DNA of 64,000 nucleotides from an uncultured Nitrospiraceae bacterium. GTDB taxonomy: Bacteria; Nitrospirota; Thermodesulfovibrionia; Thermodesulfovibrionales; Dissulfurispiraceae. The translations under genes were made by a program, and so were the position numbers. Each line of letters opens with the position of its first letter. The stretch's first letter is position 1. Under the pieces are notes generated by a model. It saw only the letters and a program-made list of their open reading frames with translations, was not told the origin of the DNA and ran no database searches. The DNA lies in the NCBI GenBank assembly GCA_963727805.1, contig CAVSHF010000003.1, positions 1,312,001 to 1,376,000 of the forward strand. The letters are read 5' to 3'. Positions 31,274 to 46,668 of this stretch are shown one piece after another.

Positions 31274-32065
31274 CTAAACTTTGAACGAGAGCGGGTTGTC
31301 TTTCCCGACAGCCCGCCGGCATGCTGTGATACAGTCACCACAGTTGTGGCAAAGGGGATATATTGTTCCGCCCATAGGATTGAGGCCCAATTGGCATGCC
31401 TTAACACATTCTCCGCATTTTATGCATTGGTCTGTCTCTCTCCGATAGGTGACCGACATGGTCTTTGCGATCCTGAAAATCCCGAGAAAGCCACCGACCG
31501 GACAAATATAGTTACACCACCCTCTGCGGATCATGAAAAATTCAAAAATGATGATAACCCCTATAAGCCCCAACTCCACACCCACTGCGCTAGACATCAA
31601 ATAATAAGATATTTGGACCGAAATGATTCCCGGCGCAGAGATAAGATTGGCAACAGGAAAGCCCAGAATCACAGTGAGAGTGAGCATGACAGCGAGGACT
31701 GCATATCGCGGCATGGGAGTTAGAGGCAAGCTAAAAGGCCGTTGAACCCCGATCTTTCTCGACAGGAAATCAAAAAGTTCGGAGAGCGCATTCTGCGGGC
31801 ACATCCAGCCACAAAAAACCCGTCCAAAGACAAGTGCAAATACTATCGGGATAGACATTGAAACTATCAGCGTTGCATCAGCGCTGAGGGTCGTCAGAAT
31901 GACCTGTAGGCCGCTTAATGGATCGGTTATCCAAATCGGCCCGATGGCAAGAGAATAAAGACTTCCAATTAAAGCATCGATGCCTCTCTTATTCAGCATA
32001 GGAATGGCGATGAGCATAGCTATTGTCGAAAGCTGGGTAATCCTGCGCAGAAGCCTTATCCTCAT
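31274..32065 (-). CDS. napH: NapH membrane Fe-S quinol dehydrogenase subunit
   Basis: TM helices, FCGWMCP and WCNYICP, two ferredoxin motifs; last gene of the nap operon. Confidence 0.88.
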   Translation of the reverse strand: MRIRLLRRITQLSTIAMLIAIPMLNKRGIDALIGSLYSLAIGPIWITDPLSGLQVILTTLSADATLIVSMSIPIVFALVFGRVFCGWMCPQNALSELFDFLSRKIGVQRPFSLPLTPMPRYAVLAVMLTLTVILGFPVANLISAPGIISVQISYYLMSSAVGVELGLIGVIIIFEFFMIRRGWCNYICPVGGFLGIFRIAKTMSVTYRRETDQCIKCGECVKACQLGLNPMGGTIYPLCHNCGDCITACRRAVGKDNPLSFKV

Positions 32066-32541
32066 TTGTCAGCCTTTGCCTTCACAATAATTGCTGCGGG
32101 ATCGACAGGACAAACATTCTCACATATTCCGCAACCAACACATTTTTCCTGATCGACTACAGGCCTCAATTGATCATCCATGATAATCGCCTCGTTGAAG
32201 ATCGGGCAGTTCTCGTAGCAACTCCTGCAGAGTATTCCCTGCCATGGCAAACAGGTCTTCTTGTCGATAATCGCCGTTCCCATCCTGACATTCTGCATAC
32301 GCGCTAACTCGCGGTCCAGGGCCCCCGATGGACAGACTGGAGGACACTTCATGCAGAGATAACACGGGATTTCGCGGGCCCTGATGTAAGGAGTCCCCAT
32401 CATCGACAGCCCGTCGAGAAGGCTTACGACTATTATCGACCGATACGGGCAGACCTGTGCGCACTTTCCGCACCGGATGCAAGAGCCAAGAAATTTCCTC
32501 TCACCCTGCGCTCCGGGCGGCCTCAGAGGCTTTCTACTCAT
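32062..32541 (-). CDS. napG: NapG/MauM-type 4x[4Fe-4S] ferredoxin, no Tat leader
   Basis: LRPPGA, CIRCGKCAQVCP, GTPYI, CYLCMKCPPVCP, CRSCYENCP, CVGCGICENVCP. Confidence 0.85.
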   Translation of the reverse strand: MSRKPLRPPGAQGERKFLGSCIRCGKCAQVCPYRSIIVVSLLDGLSMMGTPYIRAREIPCYLCMKCPPVCPSGALDRELARMQNVRMGTAIIDKKTCLPWQGILCRSCYENCPIFNEAIIMDDQLRPVVDQEKCVGCGICENVCPVDPAAIIVKAKADK

Positions 32542-32761
32542 CGATCGAAGAATAGACTGGATAAACTCCCACCACTCCTTCCAATGTCTGCATATTTCTT
32601 ATACTCTCTTCTATAACACCTATCGAGTCGCCATCCATAACAACAACAATCTGGTTTTCTTTGACTCCGTACACACTCACTTCAGGCATCTGAGCGAGGA
32701 TCCCTAATACAGCCCCAATCAAACCCTCTTCGGTTTCTACTACGGCACTTGCGATCGGCAT
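32534..32761 (-). CDS. napD: NapD Tat chaperone
   Basis: MPIASAVV...IVVVMD...GV pattern; directly after napA. Confidence 0.85.
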   Translation of the reverse strand: MPIASAVVETEEGLIGAVLGILAQMPEVSVYGVKENQIVVVMDGDSIGVIEESIRNMQTLEGVVGVYPVYSSIDE

Positions 32762-35079
32762 TATACCTTCTCCACCCGCACCGCGCAGATCTTGAATTCT
32801 GGCTGCTTCGAGAGTGCGTCAAAGGCGTCAATAGTCACTAAGTTGATGAGCCTGTTTGGGTCATGGAATGATGCATAGACAAGTCCATCCCTCGGCACAT
32901 CGACGACCTTCGCTTCCATGACGACCGAACCCCTTCTTGAGGTGATCTTCACCATGTCCTTGGTCTTGACCCCGATATTTCTGGCATCCCTTGAGTTCAT
33001 CTCTAGGAACCCGTGGGGAGCTGCGCGCTTCAGTTCAGGCACGTTGTAAGTCATTGTACCGGTGTGCCAATGTTCAAGCTGCCTGCCGGTAGTAAGAACA
33101 AAAGGATAGTCTGAATCGGTGGGCTCAGCCGGGCCTTTGTGCGGCCTGAGCCAGATGGTTGCCCGGTTTCCATCAACCTTTGCCCCGTAGAATGACACAT
33201 CCTCGGCCTGGGGATCGAACTTTTTCACGAGAGGGTCACCATATTTTGCAGTGTATCGCCTTGCTGTGCCGGTGCTGTCTTCCGTCGGCACAGGCCATTG
33301 CATTCCATGGGCCTTCCTGAGACGCGCCCTTGTCATGCCCTTGAAATCGTAGGCCGTCCCTTTAGAGGCCATGCGTATCTCGTTCCAAACATCTTCAGTG
33401 CCCTTGTATGCGAAAAGTTTCTTTGCTTCAGCGTCTCTCCCGAGGGCCTTGAAAAGCCTGTTCGCAAAATCGATCATGACCTGGAGGTCAGGTTTGGCTT
33501 CTGCAGTAGGGTCTACAGCCTTTTCGAGATACTGATATCTCCTCTCAGATTGCCCATAAGTGCCATCCTTCTCGACCCATAGAGCCGCAGGCAGGACAAG
33601 GTCGGCAAGTTCAGATGTCCTCGACGGATGATAAGCCTCAGAGACGACGAGAAACGTTTCATCCGATGCCATCCCCTTACGATAGGATGCGAGATTGGGA
33701 AGGCTTTGACCAGGATTCGTGCAGGCGATCCAAAGGCATTTTATGTCACCCTTATTAAACTCCTGGAACATCTCGATCGCTGTAGGACCTGGTTTGGGCG
33801 CTATACGTCCTTTCGGAACTGACCAGAATTTCTCCATTTCCTCCCTGTCTTTGTCATTCGCAACAACCCTGCCATAGGGAAGTAAATGGCTCAGGAGCCC
33901 ACCGTCTCTGACCCCGCCGCAGGCGTTTGGTTGTCCTGTGAGCGAAAAAGACGTGGCGCCAGGCCTACATATCTGGCCGGTAATAAGATGAAGGTTGTGG
34001 ACAAGATTGTTAGCCCATACCCCTCTTGTTCTCTGATTGAGACCCATGCACCAATAGCTCGATGTTGCCTTTGACTGTGCAAACCACCGCGCTGCCTTGA
34101 TGATGTCCTCTTTCGAGCATTTTGATACTTTTTCAGCCATCTCAGGTGTATACTCGTCGAGAAACTTCACGTAGTCGTCCCATGTAGTTTTTTCGATCTT
34201 GGGCGGAGGGCCGGGGTCGATCATCTTCTTGAAAACCGTATGCTTGTCAACGAAGTTTTTATTGTAGAGGTTTTCTTTCACAATGACATGCGCCATCGCG
34301 TTCAGAATCGCAAGATCCATGCCCGGAATGAAACTCATATGAAGATCAGCGATTTTTGCCGAAAGAGTTTTCCTCGGATCGGCAACAATGATCTTTACGT
34401 CCTTTCCCTTCTGCTTTCTTTCATTGACTATCCTAAATATGACAGGATGGGCCTCGGCCATGTTCGATCCAATGAGGAAGAAACAGTCCGCGTGATACAT
34501 GTCGTCATATGAGCCCATGGGCTCATCCTTGCCGAACGTGGAGACATATCCAACTGCTGCGGAAGCCATACAGAGACGAGGATTCCCGTCAATATTGTTG
34601 GTTCCCAGCCCACCCTTGAAGAATTTCGATATGAAGTATGACTCTTCGGTGTATGCCTGCCCCGAGCCATAGAAAGCTACTGAATTGGCACCATTTTTCT
34701 TTATCGATTCGGCGAACTTGGATACCATGAGATCCATCGCCTCTTTCCATGATATACGCTCGAACTTATTGCCTTTCCTGAGCATGGGATATTTTGCTCT
34801 GTCAGCCGCATAAAGTATCGGAGCAAGAAAATATCCTTTAATGCAGAGGAAACCCTTGTTCCAGTTGTCATTGTCACCTTTGACGCTGACAACCTTACCG
34901 CCCTTTACTCCTACATAAACCCCGCAGCCCGCGCCACAATATCTGCAGACGGCCTTGACCCACTTTTCAGCTTGTACTGCCGCCTCGATCCCCGGTGGCA
35001 ATGGCAGATCGAGTCCAATGGCCGAAGCCGCTGCAAGGGCCGCCGAGAATTTGAGCAATTGTCTTCTTGTTAATTCCAT
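32761..35079 (-). CDS. napA: Periplasmic nitrate reductase catalytic subunit
   Basis: Tat signal TRRQLLK, CRYCGAGC, NPRLCMASA (Cys Mo ligand), GQPNACG, EHWHTGTMT, KQPEFKICAV. Confidence 0.95.
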   Translation of the reverse strand: MELTRRQLLKFSAALAAASAIGLDLPLPPGIEAAVQAEKWVKAVCRYCGAGCGVYVGVKGGKVVSVKGDNDNWNKGFLCIKGYFLAPILYAADRAKYPMLRKGNKFERISWKEAMDLMVSKFAESIKKNGANSVAFYGSGQAYTEESYFISKFFKGGLGTNNIDGNPRLCMASAAVGYVSTFGKDEPMGSYDDMYHADCFFLIGSNMAEAHPVIFRIVNERKQKGKDVKIIVADPRKTLSAKIADLHMSFIPGMDLAILNAMAHVIVKENLYNKNFVDKHTVFKKMIDPGPPPKIEKTTWDDYVKFLDEYTPEMAEKVSKCSKEDIIKAARWFAQSKATSSYWCMGLNQRTRGVWANNLVHNLHLITGQICRPGATSFSLTGQPNACGGVRDGGLLSHLLPYGRVVANDKDREEMEKFWSVPKGRIAPKPGPTAIEMFQEFNKGDIKCLWIACTNPGQSLPNLASYRKGMASDETFLVVSEAYHPSRTSELADLVLPAALWVEKDGTYGQSERRYQYLEKAVDPTAEAKPDLQVMIDFANRLFKALGRDAEAKKLFAYKGTEDVWNEIRMASKGTAYDFKGMTRARLRKAHGMQWPVPTEDSTGTARRYTAKYGDPLVKKFDPQAEDVSFYGAKVDGNRATIWLRPHKGPAEPTDSDYPFVLTTGRQLEHWHTGTMTYNVPELKRAAPHGFLEMNSRDARNIGVKTKDMVKITSRRGSVVMEAKVVDVPRDGLVYASFHDPNRLINLVTIDAFDALSKQPEFKICAVRVEKV

Positions 35080-35091
35080 CGTAATCCCTCC

Positions 35092-35451
35092 TTAGCGAAT
35101 TTGTTCCACGGACTTCGGCTTTAATGAGTGCCCATCGTGACAGCCCCAGCAAATCTTCAGTCTTTCTTTGTGTCCTGACGCCGCACCGGATACCTGTTCG
35201 GCGTGACAACCGGTGCATTTCTCGGGGCTTGGACGCATTATGAAATTCTTGTCAAGATCTCCGTGACAAACGACGCACCCGACACCCATAAGACCGTGTT
35301 TGCCGTCCTGCCATACCTCAGACTCTTTGTCGTGACATTCACTGCATGCTTGGTCCGGAGGCACAGCTGGGTGCTTTTTGACCACGGCCATTGACACTAC
35401 CGGTAGAAATGTCAAAATCAATAAAATGGTAATAAGTCTTTTCTTTATCAT
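35092..35451 (-). CDS. napM: Tetraheme cytochrome c (NapM-like)
   Basis: Signal peptide plus four CxxCH (CSECH, CVVCH, CTGCH, CWGCH), upstream of napA as in Desulfovibrio napCMADGH. Confidence 0.8.
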   Translation of the reverse strand: MIKKRLITILLILTFLPVVSMAVVKKHPAVPPDQACSECHDKESEVWQDGKHGLMGVGCVVCHGDLDKNFIMRPSPEKCTGCHAEQVSGAASGHKERLKICWGCHDGHSLKPKSVEQIR

Positions 35452-39280: not shown

Positions 39281-39553
39281 TCAGACTTCGAAAAGACTGC
39301 GGGGCTGCTCGGGCTGCAGGTCGTCGTAATCCTCAAGGGCTTCGGCGTACTCCCTGATTAGTTTCATGGAATCGAGAGCGACCGCTTCGTCTACCTTCTG
39401 GATCGCAAAGCCGGCGTGCACAAGCACATACTCACCCACCTGCGCTTCCTCGGGCAGTAATATCAGGCTGACTTCCCTTCGGGCGCCGAAGACATCAACA
39501 GTCGCAAGAAGGTTATCTATATTGATAACTTTTGAGGGGACGGCAAGACACAT
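39281..39553 (-). CDS. hypC: Hydrogenase maturation chaperone HypC
   Basis: MCLAVP start; YVLVHAGFAI. Confidence 0.95.
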   Translation of the reverse strand: MCLAVPSKVINIDNLLATVDVFGARREVSLILLPEEAQVGEYVLVHAGFAIQKVDEAVALDSMKLIREYAEALEDYDDLQPEQPRSLFEV

Positions 39554-40032
39554 TCTATATTCCACTCCTTCAGCTTATCGATGGTCAAATCGATGACTTT
39601 CTCTATATTAGCATTAACAATATCAGACATTTCAAGGCCGAAGGTAAAATCAATGTCAGCTGGCTGCATGCCGATCAGGCAAACCTTCGACGGCATGACA
39701 CCTTTCAGCTTCGCAACCGAAAGGAGATCGGCAAGACCGATCTGATGCACGGAAAGTTTGGAAAAGATAACGGCAGGGATCTGGTCGTTTTCGAGTATCC
39801 CGATATAACCAGGCTCCCTGCCGAAATTTACCGCGTCGACTATCAGGACCCGGTCGAACTGCTCGAAAAGAGGAAGGAGGTCAAGGCCCAGCGTGCCGCC
39901 ATCGATAATCTCCAACTCCGGAGAGTAGTCATACCTCTCCTTTATCGTTGTGACCACGTGGACCCCAAGCCTCTCATCTTTAAGCAGTATATTCCCGAGC
40001 CCTAAAAGTACTGTCGACAAATTAGTGCCCAT
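39517..40032 (-). CDS. Hydrogenase maturation endopeptidase (HyaD/HybD family)
   Basis: GLGNILLKDE, IDGGTLG, IVDAV, SVHQ. Confidence 0.93.
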   Translation of the reverse strand: MGTNLSTVLLGLGNILLKDERLGVHVVTTIKERYDYSPELEIIDGGTLGLDLLPLFEQFDRVLIVDAVNFGREPGYIGILENDQIPAVIFSKLSVHQIGLADLLSVAKLKGVMPSKVCLIGMQPADIDFTFGLEMSDIVNANIEKVIDLTIDKLKEWNIECVLPSPQKLSI

Positions 40033-40666
40033 CCTCCATATTTTTATAGCCGCTGAATATCGAGCTCATCAAACCATTCCTCTCGATGAGGTCATTGTGC
40101 CACGAGATGTACACATGAACGATCACGAAAAGGCCAATGACCCACATGATCAAGTGGTGGACAAGCCTCAGATAGGCAACGCTCATCAGGCTCAGCGACC
40201 AGCCCCCAAGAAGCGTCCAAAGAATTCCGCCTCCAAGAGCCTCTTTATACATCGCAAAACCCGTAACGATCTCTATGATGTATAAAACAAACAGAAACAG
40301 GTACGAAAGCCCGGCCAACCCGGTATGTCCCGGATAGTGCGGCAGGTCCTTCCTGCAGAATGCATAGAACGCTGCCGTACAAACCGTGTTATCCAACCTC
40401 TCTTTCGACGTCGGGATGAACTGGTTGAGCTTCGCATACTTGTTGCCTGCAAACCACCAGTACATCCTCACTATGACGCAGACCGTAAAGAGAAAGGCCG
40501 CGACAAAGTGAACGAACCGCATGTAAGCCATGATCAGTGAATCGGCATCTCCATCCAAGAAGGGGGCGCCGATGTAAAACCCCGTTACGGATAGCACCAC
40601 GATGCTCAACGCAATCAGCCAGTGCGCCACTCGTACCGGGAACTCCCAAACATAAACTCGACTCAT
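40022..40666 (-). CDS. [NiFe]-hydrogenase b-type cytochrome subunit (HyaC/CybH)
   Basis: VYVWEFPVRVAHW, RFVHF, RLVHHLIMW, HVY, SSIFSGYK. Confidence 0.93.
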   Translation of the reverse strand: MSRVYVWEFPVRVAHWLIALSIVVLSVTGFYIGAPFLDGDADSLIMAYMRFVHFVAAFLFTVCVIVRMYWWFAGNKYAKLNQFIPTSKERLDNTVCTAAFYAFCRKDLPHYPGHTGLAGLSYLFLFVLYIIEIVTGFAMYKEALGGGILWTLLGGWSLSLMSVAYLRLVHHLIMWVIGLFVIVHVYISWHNDLIERNGLMSSIFSGYKNMEDGH

Positions 40667-40676
40667 GGCGGCCTCC

Positions 40677-42389
40677 TTATCTCAATTTGACGCTGACGAT
40701 CTCTTGCCCCTGGGTATCAAGAACATGGATGGCACACGCCATGCAAGGATCGAACGAATGGATCGTTCTCTGGATCTCCAGTGGCCTATTCGGATCGGCG
40801 ATCGGTGTTCCCATAAGGGCCTCTTCGTCCGGTCCTCTCTGTCCCTTGGTGTCTCTCGGCGATGCATTGACCCCACCGGGGACTACACACTGATAGTTAT
40901 CGATCTTCTGGTCCTTAATAACAATCCAATGGCATAGGGCTCCACGCGGGGCCTCATGATACCCATACCCTTTAGCCTCTGCCGGCCAGGTAGAGGGCTC
41001 CCACTTTTCAGTGTTGGCGGTTTTCAGGTCTCCCTTTTTCATGTTCGCCGCAAGCTCGCCGATATAATCAGGCATTTTGTCGGCAATAATCGCCGTCTCG
41101 ATACCCCTCGCAGCGGTCCTGCCGAGTGTCGAGAAAAGCGCTGCCGGTCCAACTCCCAGCTTACCCAGGACCATATCGACAGTTGCCTTGGTCTCTTTAT
41201 GCCCTGACGCATACGCAACAAGCATCCTGGCAAGAGGCCCGACTTCAACTGATGCTCCGTCATAACGGATCGCCTTGACCCAAGAATACTTCTTATCAAG
41301 ATCAAGAGACTCATATGGCGGCTTTGGTCCGGTGTAGTTAGGATCTGTCTCACCAACCCACGGATGGAGCGGTTTTGAATCACCGCCTTTATATTTATAC
41401 CAGGAACGTGATACCTCTTCCGTCATTTTCATGTGATCAACGGGAAGGACCTTGCTCAGGTCCTTATTCTTTATGTAGCCCCTCGGCAACCAGACTTTAT
41501 CAGTATTCGGCTCGTTTGCACTCTGATATTCGCCGTACGAAAGGTAATTCCCCACACCACCACCAATCGCCGCCCAGTCCTTATAGAAAGAAGCGATTGC
41601 GAGGAGGTCAGGTATGTATACCTTCGAGACAAAATCCTTCGCCTTCTGAGCGAGATCCAGCATCATTGCAATGCTACCTGCGTTCAGTGCATTCTGGCTG
41701 TTCGGATCAACCGGTGTGGCCATGCCGCCGACAACGTATGTCTGCGGATGAGGATTTTTTCCACCGAGAAGGGCATGGATCCTTATAAAGTCTTTCTGAA
41801 ACTCAAGCGCCTCAAGATAGTGTGCTACCGCCATAAGATTCGCTTCGGGCGGCAGCTTATAAGCCGGATGTCCCCAGTATCCGTTTGCGAAGATACCGAG
41901 CTGACCGCTCTCGACGAAAGTCTTCAGCTTGCCGGCAACTGACTTAAAGTAGCTGACCGATGAGTTGTTCGGCCAATCGGAAAGCGATGAAGCAAGAGCC
42001 GCAGTCTTTGCAGGGTCTGCCTTCAAAGCACTTACGACATCGACCCAGTCAAGGGCATGGAGATGATAGAAATGGATTACATGGTCCTGAATGGTCTGTG
42101 AACAGTTGATAATATTACGGATGATTCTCGCGTTGTCGGGGATTGTAATGTTGAGCGCAGCTTCAACAGCTCTCACGGAGCTGGTAGAGTGTACGGTAGT
42201 TCAAACCCCGCAGATACGGGACACGAACGTCCATGCGTCCCGCGGGTCTCTGCCTTTCAGCATGACTTCCAAGCCTCTCCACATTGTGCCTGCAACCCAG
42301 GCGTCAGCGATTTTTCCGCCTTCGACCTTGGCTTCGACACGCATATGTCCTTCTATTCGCGTCATGGGATCAACGACTATTTTAGCCAT
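40677..42389 (-). CDS. Group 1 membrane-bound hydrogenase large subunit (570 aa) with in-frame UGA (putative Sec63) in the L1 motif
   Basis: ORF-track pieces 42201-42395 and 40677-42176 are in the same frame: DPMTRIEGH...[19 protein letters not shown]...[12 protein letters not shown]...EAPRG...[10 protein letters not shown] plus a C-terminal extension. Confidence 0.85.
42167..42183 (-). promoter_or_regulatory. Candidate bacterial SECIS hairpin
   Basis: CAGCUC-CGUGA-GAGCUG. The stem starts 17 nt and the loop 23 nt after the UGA, with G at loop position 2. Confidence 0.55.
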
Positions 42390-42404: not shown

Positions 42405-43469
42405 TTAGTCCTTATTTTTGCCTTTTGTGGCTGTCCTGATAGCTGCGTGAGCCGCTACGGCGGCCACTGCAACTGCCGCTATACCAAGGCCGATCTTGTC
42501 AGCATTGGCCATAACACCCGCGCCGGGTACCTTGGGCATTCTCTTGTAGAACGGATATGCCGCATCCCAGTTCCCCGGTGTCGAGCAGGCAATGCAGCCA
42601 TGTCCGGCCATTACCGGCCAGCTCGTACCACCGTTCCACCTGACTGTCGGACAGTTCTGATGCGACATCGGGCCCTTGCAGCCCATCTCGTAAAGACACC
42701 ATCCCTGCTTGGCTCCATCGTCTCCCCAAGCCTTCACAAACTGCCCGGCATCAAAATGCGGACGCCTCTCACAGTTGTTGTGGATCAGTTTTCCAAAAGC
42801 AAACTTCGGACGGCCATTGCTATCCAGGGCGGGTAATGCACCAAAAGTGAGGAAATGTACTACGGTGGCGGTGAAGTTCTCTACGTTCATCGGACAACCG
42901 GCGATATTGACGACTGTGCCGCCGATAGCTTCCTGAATACCAACATATCCACACGGATTCGGGGCGGCTGCGGAGAGCCCGCCGAAACAGGCGCAGTTGC
43001 CTACAGCGATATTCGCCATTGCGCCGGCCGCGACTTCCTTGAGGATAGCCATCGAGGACTTCCCGGCAACGCAGCAATAGACTCCGCCGTCCTTCGAAGA
43101 GACTGCTCCCTCATAAACAGCGATATACTGGCCCTTCTTGTTTTTCAGAATGTCCTGCAGCGATTTCTCAGCGGCTGTTCCACAAGGGGCCATGAGAGTC
43201 TCATGGTAATCAAGCGAGATGATATCAAGCACAATCTGCCCGATAGTCGGCTTTGTCGCCCTCAAGACTGATTCGGAATCACCGGTACATTCCGCAAAGT
43301 GCATCCAGACAACCGACGGTCTCTGCTTCTTTTCCAGGGCTTCGGCGATCTGAGGGACCGCGGAAGAGCTCAAACCTAAAGTCGCAGCTGTTCCAGCGCA
43401 AAACTTCAGGAAGTCCCTGCGCGACACCCCTCGTCGCGTCAGATAAGAATAAATGCTCTCGTTCTCCAT
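42405..43469 (-). CDS. [NiFe]-hydrogenase small subunit (Tat-exported, C-terminal TM anchor)
   Basis: SRRDFLK Tat motif, ECTGDSES, GNCACFGG, GCP, HNNCERR, CLYEMGCKGP, CPTVRWN, HGCIAC, and a His-containing anchor. GGAGG RBS before ATG 43469. Confidence 0.95.
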   Translation of the reverse strand: MENESIYSYLTRRGVSRRDFLKFCAGTAATLGLSSSAVPQIAEALEKKQRPSVVWMHFAECTGDSESVLRATKPTIGQIVLDIISLDYHETLMAPCGTAAEKSLQDILKNKKGQYIAVYEGAVSSKDGGVYCCVAGKSSMAILKEVAAGAMANIAVGNCACFGGLSAAAPNPCGYVGIQEAIGGTVVNIAGCPMNVENFTATVVHFLTFGALPALDSNGRPKFAFGKLIHNNCERRPHFDAGQFVKAWGDDGAKQGWCLYEMGCKGPMSHQNCPTVRWNGGTSWPVMAGHGCIACSTPGNWDAAYPFYKRMPKVPGAGVMANADKIGLGIAAVAVAAVAAHAAIRTATKGKNKD

Positions 43470-43584
43470 ACCCGTCCTCCTGTGACGAAATTTAACTCTA
43501 CAATATAGAGCTAATGGTACCACATTGTAGACGAAATGCTACGTGGTGTCAAGTACTGATAATTTATAGATTATTAAAATTTTT

Positions 43585-45909
43585 TTATAGATTCGCATTC
43601 CGAATAATATATGCCTGACCAAGCGAAAGACATGCGTCATTGCAGGGGATATTCTCATTCGTAAAGACGGCAAAACCGAGGGTGGATAGCTCGCGAAGAG
43701 TTCTTTCTAAGAGCATTGCATTCTGGAAGCATCCCCCGCTCAGAGCAACGCGGTCCATTCCAGTTTTTCCCCTTATGCGGCATACCATATCGACGATTAC
43801 CTTAATCATGGTAATGTGGAAACGTAACGAAATAACTCTCTGATCAATATGGCTTTTCACCTCACCGGCAATCTCGGAAATCATCTCAGAAAAATCGATG
43901 ACAGATGTCTTTCCATCATAAATACGATAGGCATAAGGGGCTGTTTGAGCGCTGTTGTCGGTATCGGGGAGCGCACTTTCGAGCGCTACGGCAGCTTCGC
44001 CTTCATAGGTGCTGGTGTGACAAATCCCAGCAAGTGCCGAGATCGCGTCGAAAAGCCTTCCCGCGCCTGAGGTGAGGGGAGAGAGAGTCCGATTATCGAT
44101 AATCTTAAGCAGCGTGTCGAGGTTGCTCCTGCTGTATCTTTCTAAATAGCCTATATCCGTAAGATACTGATAGACGTCGCGGTCGTCCGCGGCGGACTGC
44201 TTCAAATAGCTGACCGCAATCCTCCATGGCTCTTTGATAGCCTTTTCACCTCCCGGCAGTGGAACATAGCGAAAGTGGCCAACCCTTTCGAATCCTTCAA
44301 GAGAGCAGACTAGAAACTCGCTTCCCCACAAATGACCGTCAGTGCCGTAACCTGTGCCGTCAAAAGCGACGCCGATTACTTTTCCTTTAATGCCGTTCTC
44401 CGCCATAACCGCTGCAATATGGCCATGGTGATGCTGTATTCCGTATCCCTTCAAGCCTTTTTCACCAATGTGCTGTAGCGCCCATTGGGTTGACAGATAT
44501 CCGGGATGAAGATCATAGGCGACCGCGACCGGATCGGACCGGTAAACCTGCTTGAGATTTTCTAGCGACTCCTCGAAAAATTCGAGGGTCTCCAGATTCT
44601 CCATATCGCCGATGTGCTGGCTGACAATCGCCGCATTTCCCCTCGTGAGGGTGAAGGTGTTTTTCACCTCCGCACCGCAACCGAGGACATCTGGGCCTTC
44701 TTCGCCCAGCATAATCGCTTCCGGTGTGTATCCCCTCGACCGCCTGATAAAATGAGTTTTTCCATCGATAACCCTAATCACGGAGTCATCCACCCGCATA
44801 AAAATGTCCCGGTTATGAAATAAAAAAGCATCGGCGAGCCCCCCAAGCCTGTCAAGGGCATCATCATTGGCGATTACAATAGGTTCTTCGGAGAGATTTC
44901 CGCTCGTGGCGACGAGAGCCCTGAAATGGGGGAGTTCGTTGAAGCTTTGAGGCTGATTAGTCCGGCAATGAAAGAGAAGATAATGCAGCGGTGTATAAGG
45001 GAGCATAAAACCGAGAAAGCTGTTGTGAGGCGCCACAGCATCGGGAAGGCGGGATGGCTTTCTTTTGAGCAGAACGATCGGCCTGCGCATGTCGCAAAGC
45101 ATCTTTGCTTCATCGGTAGAAACATGGCAGAACTGACTGACTATGGCGACGTCAGGAGACATCACGGCAAACGGTTTATTTCTCCGTCTCTTTCTTTCTC
45201 TGAGCAACCTGACAGCTTCTGCGTTTTCGGCATCGCAACAGAGATGAAATCCTCCGAGCCCTTTTATCGCGACAATCGCACCCTGTTTCAATAATTCTAT
45301 CGCCGCGGGAATCGGTTCCCGTTCATCAACTTTGAACTTTGAACTATGAACTTTTAGGTGTACTTGAGGTCCGCATGAAGGACAAGCATTAGGCTGGGCA
45401 TGGAATCTCCGGTCCGACGGATCGTTATACTCCGCCAAACACTGAGGACACATAGGGAAAACCGACATAGTAGTATTTGGCCTGTCATAGGGAACTTTTC
45501 TGGTAATACTGTATCTCGGACCACAATTGGTGCAGTTGGTGAATGGATATTGAAAGCGCCTATCCGAAGGAGTTAATAGTTCTTTCAGGCAGTCGTCACA
45601 TATTGAAATATCCGGTGAGACATGCGTGAATCCTCCTTCGTCGATGCTCCGGAGGATTGTAAAGTCGTCATAGCCTGTGAGAGGCAGCTCTTTGATCTCT
45701 ATTGATTCGATCCTGGCAAGCGGAGGGAGATTCTCGCGGTGGGCTTTCGCAAATCCTTCGGCCTCATCGCCCTCAACCTCGATGATCACGCCCTCTGAGG
45801 TATTCGTCACATACCCCGTCAATCCCAGTTTTCGTGCAAGGTTATACACTGAGGGCCTGAAACCGACGCCCTGCACCGTTCCTTTAATCGTTATGTGAAA
45901 ATGAGCCAT
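43585..45909 (-). CDS. hypF: Carbamoyltransferase HypF
   Basis: GTVQGVGFRP, CDDC/CTNC/CPQC/CPSC zinc fingers, KGLGGFH, QHHHGH, DGTGYG. Confidence 0.97.
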   Translation of the reverse strand: MAHFHITIKGTVQGVGFRPSVYNLARKLGLTGYVTNTSEGVIIEVEGDEAEGFAKAHRENLPPLARIESIEIKELPLTGYDDFTILRSIDEGGFTHVSPDISICDDCLKELLTPSDRRFQYPFTNCTNCGPRYSITRKVPYDRPNTTMSVFPMCPQCLAEYNDPSDRRFHAQPNACPSCGPQVHLKVHSSKFKVDEREPIPAAIELLKQGAIVAIKGLGGFHLCCDAENAEAVRLLRERKRRRNKPFAVMSPDVAIVSQFCHVSTDEAKMLCDMRRPIVLLKRKPSRLPDAVAPHNSFLGFMLPYTPLHYLLFHCRTNQPQSFNELPHFRALVATSGNLSEEPIVIANDDALDRLGGLADAFLFHNRDIFMRVDDSVIRVIDGKTHFIRRSRGYTPEAIMLGEEGPDVLGCGAEVKNTFTLTRGNAAIVSQHIGDMENLETLEFFEESLENLKQVYRSDPVAVAYDLHPGYLSTQWALQHIGEKGLKGYGIQHHHGHIAAVMAENGIKGKVIGVAFDGTGYGTDGHLWGSEFLVCSLEGFERVGHFRYVPLPGGEKAIKEPWRIAVSYLKQSAADDRDVYQYLTDIGYLERYSRSNLDTLLKIIDNRTLSPLTSGAGRLFDAISALAGICHTSTYEGEAAVALESALPDTDNSAQTAPYAYRIYDGKTSVIDFSEMISEIAGEVKSHIDQRVISLRFHITMIKVIVDMVCRIRGKTGMDRVALSGGCFQNAMLLERTLRELSTLGFAVFTNENIPCNDACLSLGQAYIIRNANL

Positions 45910-45959: not shown

Positions 45960-46607
45960 CTATACTTTTTTGACAAATATTTCCTTGGCCAGTTCCGGGT
46001 CGATGGCAATAGTCGTCTCATCCATCTGGAGAACTATGGACGGCTTCCGCTGGAGCAGCCGGATGATTGTACCGGGGATAATCCCGATCGAGCTGAGACG
46101 CCCAATCCGCGATGCCTCTGAGGGCGTGATAAAAACGATCTTCCCTTCCTGCCCAACCTCGAAATTGGGTAGCCTCACAACAACCGGACGAACATCTACA
46201 CTATATTTCTTGCAGCACTCTCCGCGGGGAATCGGCTTGCCGTGCGGGCACAGAGGCGGATGGCCAAGAAAAGTGCAGACGCTATCGGTGAGTTCCTGGC
46301 TCAATATGTGCTCCATCTTGCAAGCATCTTCCTCTATCGCATTTTTGGGCAGGTCAAAGATATCGGTAAAGAGTCTTTCGGCAAGCCTATGTCTTCTGAT
46401 AAGCGCCTTTGCGAGATCGATACCCTTGTCGGTCAGGCAAATCTCGCTGTCACTGAGAACCGCGAGCCCTTCCCCCTTCAGCATTTCGACGAGCGTGTCG
46501 ACTTCAGAATCATCAGACGAAAGCTTGAATCTCTTCAGATCGCGGTGCCCCTCCTCTGCCAATACCCAGAGGAGTTCCAGCGCTTCATCTATTCTCTCTT
46601 TTTCCAT
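45960..46607 (-). CDS. DtxR/MntR-family metal-dependent regulator fused to FeoA domain
   Basis: RRHRLAERLF, ACKMEH, LGHPPLCPHGKPIP, C-terminal FeoA-like GIIPGT. Confidence 0.88.
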   Translation of the reverse strand: MEKERIDEALELLWVLAEEGHRDLKRFKLSSDDSEVDTLVEMLKGEGLAVLSDSEICLTDKGIDLAKALIRRHRLAERLFTDIFDLPKNAIEEDACKMEHILSQELTDSVCTFLGHPPLCPHGKPIPRGECCKKYSVDVRPVVVRLPNFEVGQEGKIVFITPSEASRIGRLSSIGIIPGTIIRLLQRKPSIVLQMDETTIAIDPELAKEIFVKKV

Positions 46608-46668
46608 AAAACCTCCCAAAAGCGGTTAAAAAGTAAATGGACGAATGGGCAAAAAGACTAGACACTTC

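Follow-up and report, generated by a model that had tools for sequence, protein, structure and literature searches.

Canonical [NiFeSe] hydrogenases (HysAB of HydDB group 1a; Vhu and Fru of Methanococcus) carry a UGA-encoded selenocysteine (Sec) as a nickel ligand, and they are known to give way to Cys isoenzymes depending on selenium. In Escherichia coli hydrogenase 1 (Hyd-1), Cys79 is an established bridging ligand of the active site. Takano 2026 (PMC13582414) agrees with this assignment and, in its excerpted text, credits Baltazar 2011 with N-terminal CXXU motifs in two Group 1 sequences and one Group 3 sequence, the Sec being predicted to bridge Ni and Fe. In the excerpted text of PMC8020662 that review is cited instead for C579, the other bridging Cys, so that the two citing papers disagree. 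The excerpts of Takano 2026 further describe 47 Group 4 enzymes with N-terminal Sec, of which 27 are CXXU, 4 are UXXC and another 16 are UXXU (PMC13582414). A term search of supplementary file 2 of HydDB (PMC5037454) returned CGVU in three Group 3c proteins (WP_012545782.1, WP_012302733.1 and WP_015617925.1) and CGIU in a single protein of Group 4g; CGVUT does not occur in this 2016 file. The accessible part of a 2026 selenoproteome review gives only UxxC for hydrogenase large subunits (PMC13188914). An engineered counterpart exists: according to excerpts of Evans 2021 (PMC8020662), the C79U variant of Hyd-1 is active at 13% of native with a lower KM for H2, and tolerates prolonged O2 less well than the native enzyme. 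Our literature search, which covered subscription journals poorly, found no paper on selenium variants of group 1f or on a biochemically tested natural hydrogenase with a bridging Sec.

Here we describe a hydrogenase operon in a 64,000-nucleotide stretch of DNA (the window) from an uncultured Nitrospiraceae bacterium. The features to which the analysis refers are as follows.

43585..45909, minus strand: HypF carbamoyltransferase, directly upstream of the operon
43524..43552, minus strand: sigma-70-like promoter match ahead of the small subunit, TTGACA-17-TACAAT, 11/12 (a consensus match only)
42405..43469, minus strand: hydrogenase small subunit, with a Tat signal and, at the C-terminus, a hydrophobic anchor (TIGR00391 and TIGR01409 above cut-off in the operon)
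40677..42389, minus strand: hydrogenase large subunit gene, group 1f-type, 570 codons with TGA63 read through
42201..42203, minus strand: in-frame TGA, codon 63, predicted selenocysteine in place of the second Cys of RxCGxC, corresponding to Hyd-1 C79
42167..42183, minus strand: SECIS-type hairpin at +18 to +34 from the UGA, with a 6-bp stem CAGCUC/GAGCUG, loop CGUGA, G at loop position 2
40866..40883, minus strand: VPGGVN replacing the usual VP[S/T]TWN; Gly505 corresponds to Hyd-1 Thr532
40725..40751, minus strand: C-terminal motif DPCMACAIH with ordinary Cys549 and Cys552; a 15-residue tail follows His555
40022..40666, minus strand: b-type cytochrome subunit (TIGR02125 above cut-off)
39517..40032, minus strand: hydrogenase maturation protease, HyaD/HybD family
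39281..39565, minus strand: HypC/HupF chaperone

In the operon the small subunit is followed by the large subunit, cytochrome b, the protease and HypC, with HypF upstream, and the small, large and cytochrome b subunits give the three-subunit composition of group 1f. The antiporter-like membrane subunits of Group 4 were not found in the operon, and the best matches belong to Group 1. The proximal motif of the small subunit reads ECTGDSES, with Asp in place of the second Cys, as it also does in the Cys twin described below; relatives have Asn, Asp or Cys at this position. A DtxR/MntR-like metal-dependent regulator (45960-46619, minus strand) lies directly upstream of hypF, a position kept in three relatives (G003, G016 and G020). 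About 4 kb downstream of the operon is a cluster resembling a periplasmic nitrate reductase (31274-35451, minus strand), which encodes a NapA-like protein below the family cut-off, a small c-type cytochrome and NapG- and NapH-like proteins, and is a possible electron sink.

A preliminary description of this DNA had read two large-subunit open reading frames as a single frame split by a TGA at 42203-42201 (codon 63), had placed this TGA exactly on the second Cys of RxCGxC, and had noted an ordinary C-terminal DPCMAC. Translation and alignment bear out all of this. The minus-strand frame 42389-40677 contains TGA63, in the context RICGV*TTVH, as its sole internal stop; codon 63 falls on C79 of E. 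coli Hyd-1 in the alignment; and the DPCMAC cysteines are encoded by TGC and TGT, not by the Sec codon of the canonical DPUxxC. In the same alignment E13, D102, R482, C549 and C552 correspond to Hyd-1 E28, D118, R509, C576 and C579. Gene calling with translation table 11 yields only a GTG-started 499-aa ORF from 42176, and databases carry this truncated form as a 75-member cluster. An alignment-based model (61-row alignment, Cys at position 63) reached pLDDT 78, pTM 0.84 and a TM score of 0.87 to 3MYR, and thus confirms, as a prediction, the hydrogenase large-subunit fold. Its residues 535-555, the region of the C-terminal motif, fall below pLDDT 50, so the model is silent on active-site geometry. 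A single-sequence AlphaFold model was discarded (pLDDT 34).

In phylogenetic trees the large subunit groups with a protein of a related genome, L050, in a supported clade near Geobacteraceae-labelled proteins. L050 is 68% identical to the window protein and matches by eye the HydDB group 1f entry of Thermodesulfovibrio yellowstonii (WP_012546172.1). By its place in the tree and this by-eye match, the enzyme is assigned to group 1f, the cytochrome b-linked uptake hydrogenases. The HydDB 1f entries of T. yellowstonii and Geobacter sulfurreducens (WP_010940798.1) share its small, large and cytochrome b architecture; unlike the window protein, both have Cys at the two N-terminal positions. When the SECIS-coding residues were masked, the window protein fell in a supported group of UxxU and CxxU forms (11 rows, 98), and Cys forms were scattered among Sec forms in the tree. 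A single origin of all 1f-type Sec forms was rejected by an AU test (p 1e-10) run under LG+G4 on 31 rows hand-picked after earlier trees; deeper branches differ between two trees. It is plausible that the first Sec was lost in this genus. Nearer to E. coli HybC is another CxxU lineage, group 1c-like and about 51% identical to the window protein; it includes L054-L056, L073, L091, L093, L096, L125 and others, with L161 as a UxxU form, and its hosts are Nitrospirota, Thermodesulfobacteriota and Nitrospinota.

One alternative, raised in the preliminary description, is that the TGA is a sequencing error or a nonsense mutation. If the mutation were recent, the gene would be a pseudogene, with the Cys paralog elsewhere in the genome as the working copy. 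This paralog is indeed complete, and an additional in-frame TAG in the gene of one relative (L047) indicates that broken copies or errors do occur. Logan contigs from four DNA runs, which are contigs and not raw reads, nevertheless list no difference at 42201-42203 and support the TGA. One contig from run X1, which may be the source sample, spans codon 63 with 0 differences, and a contig from run X5, which belongs to another study, spans it with 4 differences, all elsewhere. Contigs of RNA libraries from three runs, 96-98% alike, cover codon 63; as contigs they cannot show transcription, and we set them aside here. The same single TGA is present in four of seven other genomes of the genus, each a different species, at 88-92% protein identity, so that independent genomes carry it as well. 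Nor are all close orthologs Cys forms, which would have spoken for damage: the 29 loci read among 40 relatives comprise 8 CxxU, 15 UxxU and 5 CxxC, and one is without its N-terminus. The dN/dS ratio is 0.009-0.096 for codons 1-62 (all five comparisons) and 0.035-0.037 for codons 64-570 (two of five comparisons, dS being saturated in the other three). TGA63 is real and under selection. With the TGA common to species that have saturated synonymous sites and strong purifying selection, and found in at least 120 stretches in GTDB, we reject error or recent mutation, an explanation that retains next to no credibility. The L047 gene (genome G022) is a UxxU form with its TAG at codon 376, and is either a broken copy or an assembly error.

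The GTDB stretches were found with the DNA pattern RxxC/UGVUTTVH, and among the matches listed 62 are CxxU and 58 UxxU. Eighty titled loci among these listed matches come mainly from Nitrospirota and Chloroflexota, within seven named phylum labels that also include Thermodesulfobacteriota, Spirochaetota, Nitrospinota, Methylomirabilota and Rokuibacteriota. Every locus among the matches listed that is long enough to show the C-terminal motif (68/68) has DPC. In a survey of the phylum, 81 of 401 genomes contain the pattern, often as UxxU, and a reversed control gave 0; by our own tally of the survey table it occurs in 74 of the 147 genomes sampled in the class. In the same survey none of the 14 genomes of genus g27, one of which is the source of L050, has it. 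If g27 is the cultured genus of T. yellowstonii, this would explain why the variant went unnoticed.

A hairpin of the SECIS type, whose loop CGUGA has a G at position 2, follows the UGA. On sets of distinct sequences, all five core stem pairs are formed in 86/131 TGA genes and in 0/124 Cys genes, and the loop G occurs in 131/131 of the former and 98/124 of the latter, the Cys set being drawn mostly from a metagenome pattern scan and on average more distant. The remaining 45 of the 131 TGA genes are off the fixed register, with a bulged or shifted stem. In the TGA alignment 82% of cells pair and two-sided changes occur at five of six pairs; the covariation score was reached by 0/500 shuffles and registers slid along the alignment pair less (30-56%), all of these figures being inflated by relatedness and by codon constraint on the encoded residues. 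Folding of the 74-nt stretch from the UGA was no better than that of shuffles (z -0.01), and the SECIS case therefore rests on covariation. A genome-wide scan for UGA followed by a generic hairpin gave 288 matches, mostly spurious, so a generic hairpin is no evidence in itself. Plausible selenoproteins among the matches listed include SelD, a CxxU protein and a UxxC protein.

This covarying hairpin also bears on whether the UGA acts as a true stop, giving a 62-aa peptide and a re-initiated 499-aa fragment, or a split enzyme. The GTG-started ORF does exist and is the form annotated in databases. Its annotated start is at residue 72, however, and a split would lose residues 63-71, including the bridging ligand and the conserved His67. 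Moreover, the positions taken by TGA across several phyla are precisely those of the Cys codons, in many cases both of them (UxxU). We regard termination at codon 63 as very improbable.

The preliminary description had pointed to the Sec machinery as a further check, and the set proved complete: selA, selB and a tRNA-Sec with UCA anticodon are present, as are two selD genes that each contain a TGA. Among the TGA-bearing relatives selA is present in 23/24, but as it is also found in 38/41 genomes of the order overall, and is thus near-universal, its co-occurrence with the TGA does not discriminate. One selD adjoins a gene for a selenium-associated LysR regulator (NF040786; G000:C5:156495-158420, G000 being this genome), and a second such LysR (C3:409122-410003) brings the total in G000 to two. 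Codon 63 very probably encodes Sec, the presence of selenium in the protein being deduced from sequence.

The same genome contains elements which may allow Cys to be inserted at UGA. These, together with a second hydrogenase operon, lie outside the window.

G000:C3:956010-959939: Cys paralog operon, complete, with an RFCGVC large subunit
G000:C3:960046-960162 and C3:994192-994317, minus strand: two selC*/tRNA-ReC-like genes (L017 and L015)
G000:C3:1748735-1749955, minus strand: second CysRS (L311), short, 406 aa, cysS*-like, matching positions 1-402 of the 466 in the model

Both tRNAs have a tRNA-Sec-like fold with the 8-bp acceptor stem, U73 and GCA anticodon that mark selC*/tRNA-ReC (GCA or UCA), together with a very long variable arm, CCA and a G1:C72 pair; ARAGORN misses both and they score just below the Rfam cut-off. 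The copy before the Cys operon may be decaying, with odd bases in its anticodon and T loops. An open frame through the selC*-like tRNA in some genomes was dropped as a candidate, its frame not being conserved, by eye, in G001. The second CysRS adjoins nifU/nifS-like genes (named by eye), and the main cysS appears to be an in-frame fusion with a cysE-like domain (711 aa, C5:204823-206958).

It is possible, then, that the UGA is read mainly as Cys, a selC*/tRNA-ReC being delivered by SelB to the same hairpin, which would make an ordinary four-Cys hydrogenase with translation gated by selenium or sulfur status. The two tRNA-Sec-like genes with GCA, U73 and CCA and the second short CysRS speak for this, as do reports that selC* tRNAs were described from Nitrospirae (excerpts of PMC5389517; selC*/tRNA-ReC also in excerpts of PMC7609411) and that both anticodon types recode UGA, with a warning on UGA as Cys in such genomes (excerpted text of PMC13582414). 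On the other hand, GCA is an anticodon that pairs poorly with UGA. In the cysS* genomes covered by the excerpts of PMC5389517 the tRNAs have a UCA anticodon and A1:U72, as against GCA and G1:C72 here. The selC*-like sequences were matched in 16 of 40 relatives, and 14 of the 24 TGA-bearing relatives gave no match to this tRNA query, so reading of the UGA in those 14 would rest on tRNA-Sec. Just one selB was found in the genome, there would be no need for a Cys paralog of its own if UGA already meant Cys, and Gly505, discussed below, tracks the UGA forms. Taken together, reading mainly as Cys is in our estimation unlikely. A milder form, in which Sec is inserted as long as there is selenium and Cys under shortage, is compatible with Sec at codon 63, the reading that we prefer.

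The all-Cys twin operon resembles the Sec operon to a different degree from gene to gene. Its large subunit is 76% identical to the Sec form in protein and 74% in DNA; the small-subunit genes are 98% identical in DNA and the cytochrome b genes 91%. In relative G003 the two small subunits are likewise 99% identical to each other, whereas those of the Sec operons of G000 and G003 are 83% identical. High identity within genomes as against 83% between them points to gene conversion within genomes, and it appears that either large subunit can pair with a small subunit that is homogenised between operons.

One of the selC*-like tRNAs lies about 105 nt upstream of the twin, and the second precedes a YeeE-family gene. 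They belong to a 429-bp cassette of promoter-like DNA and selC*-like tRNA, 78% identical between its two copies, which precedes both the Cys operon and yeeE and is absent upstream of the Sec operon of the window. G003 has a decayed cassette copy before its Cys operon, and in several relatives the cassette tRNA clusters with the selenium-associated LysR (NF040786), YeeE and YedF. From the shared upstream DNA, and from that only, we infer that the Cys operon may be co-regulated with a selenium/sulfur-uptake module as a low-selenium backup. A simple rule that the cassette marks the Cys operon is countered by G005, where the tRNA-yeeE cassette is directly ahead of the Sec operon; this arrangement may reflect a chimera joined across the near-identical small subunit. 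A profile of the upstream motif of the cassette found in the genome only its two known copies and gave no sign of a wider regulon.

A further difference between Sec and Cys forms lies near the active site. A Ser or Thr at the position of Gly505 hydrogen-bonds a cyanide ligand of the iron. Gly occupies this position in 19/88 Sec-type and 0/175 scored Cys-type sequences, the 19 representing a few related groups and not independent events; three further Cys rows were unscored and have Thr or Ser by eye.

Based on these findings, we consider it highly probable that the window encodes an intact group 1f uptake hydrogenase in which UGA63 is most likely read as a Sec bridging Ni and Fe, and that the all-Cys paralog likely replaces it when selenium is scarce. 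By the bacterial Sec pathway, SelB with GTP and Sec-tRNA would bind the hairpin and insert Sec, giving a 570-aa precursor. Hyp proteins would load Fe(CN)2CO and Ni, the protease would trim the tail after His555, and the dimer would be exported by Tat, electrons from H2 passing through cytochrome b to the quinone pool. The predicted ligands are Cys60 (terminal), Sec63 (bridging), Cys549 and Cys552; Glu13, Asp102 and Arg482 are retained, as they are in [NiFe] enzymes. More speculatively, the Sec form might be kept for catalytic tuning, for instance higher H2 affinity, and not for O2 tolerance, and Gly505 might give space for the larger selenium. The poorer O2 tolerance of C79U Hyd-1, as given in the excerpted source, counts against O2 tolerance as the benefit of selenium.

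A wider scenario can be proposed only tentatively, and we give it somewhat less than even credence. The Nitrospirota group 1f enzymes would have carried Sec, ancestrally or repeatedly, at one or both N-terminal ligands, and the second shell would have adapted along with it, Ser giving way to Gly in the VP[S/T]TWN loop. The genus would operate a selenium switch in which one gene-converted small subunit serves both the bridging-Sec and the all-Cys large subunit, the Cys operon having captured the promoter and selC* cassette of a selenium/sulfur-uptake cluster so as to be induced at selenium depletion.

The position of the Sec is not new, having been predicted in print from sequence. The preliminary description is supported in its reading that UGA is recoded where a cytochrome b-linked membrane hydrogenase has its bridging N-terminal Cys; its claim of a new type was overstated: N-terminal CXXU is already in print for Groups 1, 3 and 4, and CGVU is in HydDB. 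What is new here is the Cys-only paralog operon with its 98%-identical small subunit, the cassette before it, and the Ser/Thr-to-Gly change found only in Sec forms. The value of the locus lies in the unexpected prevalence of the variant and in a controlled pair provided by nature, in which a Sec and a Cys large subunit go with a practically identical small subunit and to which close relatives add UxxU. With this pair and these relatives, the role of selenium at each nickel ligand position can be tested beyond engineered Hyd-1. There is also an annotation problem, since the stored 499-aa fragment is without the first metal-binding motif. With about half of the sampled genomes of the class carrying the motif, and callers storing the fragment, H2 uptake is probably mis-scored in these sediment bacteria.

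Compared with known systems, the window enzyme has in common with the N-terminal CXXU hydrogenases of Baltazar and of HydDB group 3c the predicted bridging Sec at the second Cys and an all-Cys C-terminal motif. It differs from them in being a cytochrome b-linked group 1f enzyme, in belonging to a lineage that switches among CxxC, CxxU and UxxU, and in having a Cys isoform in the same genome. According to the excerpts of PMC13582414, the Group 4 enzymes of Takano fall into the same motif classes, have a SECIS with loop G downstream, show a mosaic phylogeny and co-occur with tRNA-ReC, and one genome has Sec and Cys copies; they are, however, rare (~0.2%) ion-translocating complexes, whereas the window protein is a Group 1 uptake enzyme with a motif found in 74 of the 147 genomes sampled in its class. 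The canonical [NiFeSe] enzymes likewise use a UGA-encoded Sec as a nickel ligand, but there it is the terminal ligand of the C-terminal UxxC, where the window protein has DPCMAC; the latter also keeps the canopy Asp, has a cytochrome b, and scores 388 bits against the HysA model NF045518, whose cut-off is 780. Finally, C79U Hyd-1 has Sec at the same ligand position and is active, but it is an artificial enzyme on an O2-tolerant group 1d scaffold, without a co-evolved second shell.
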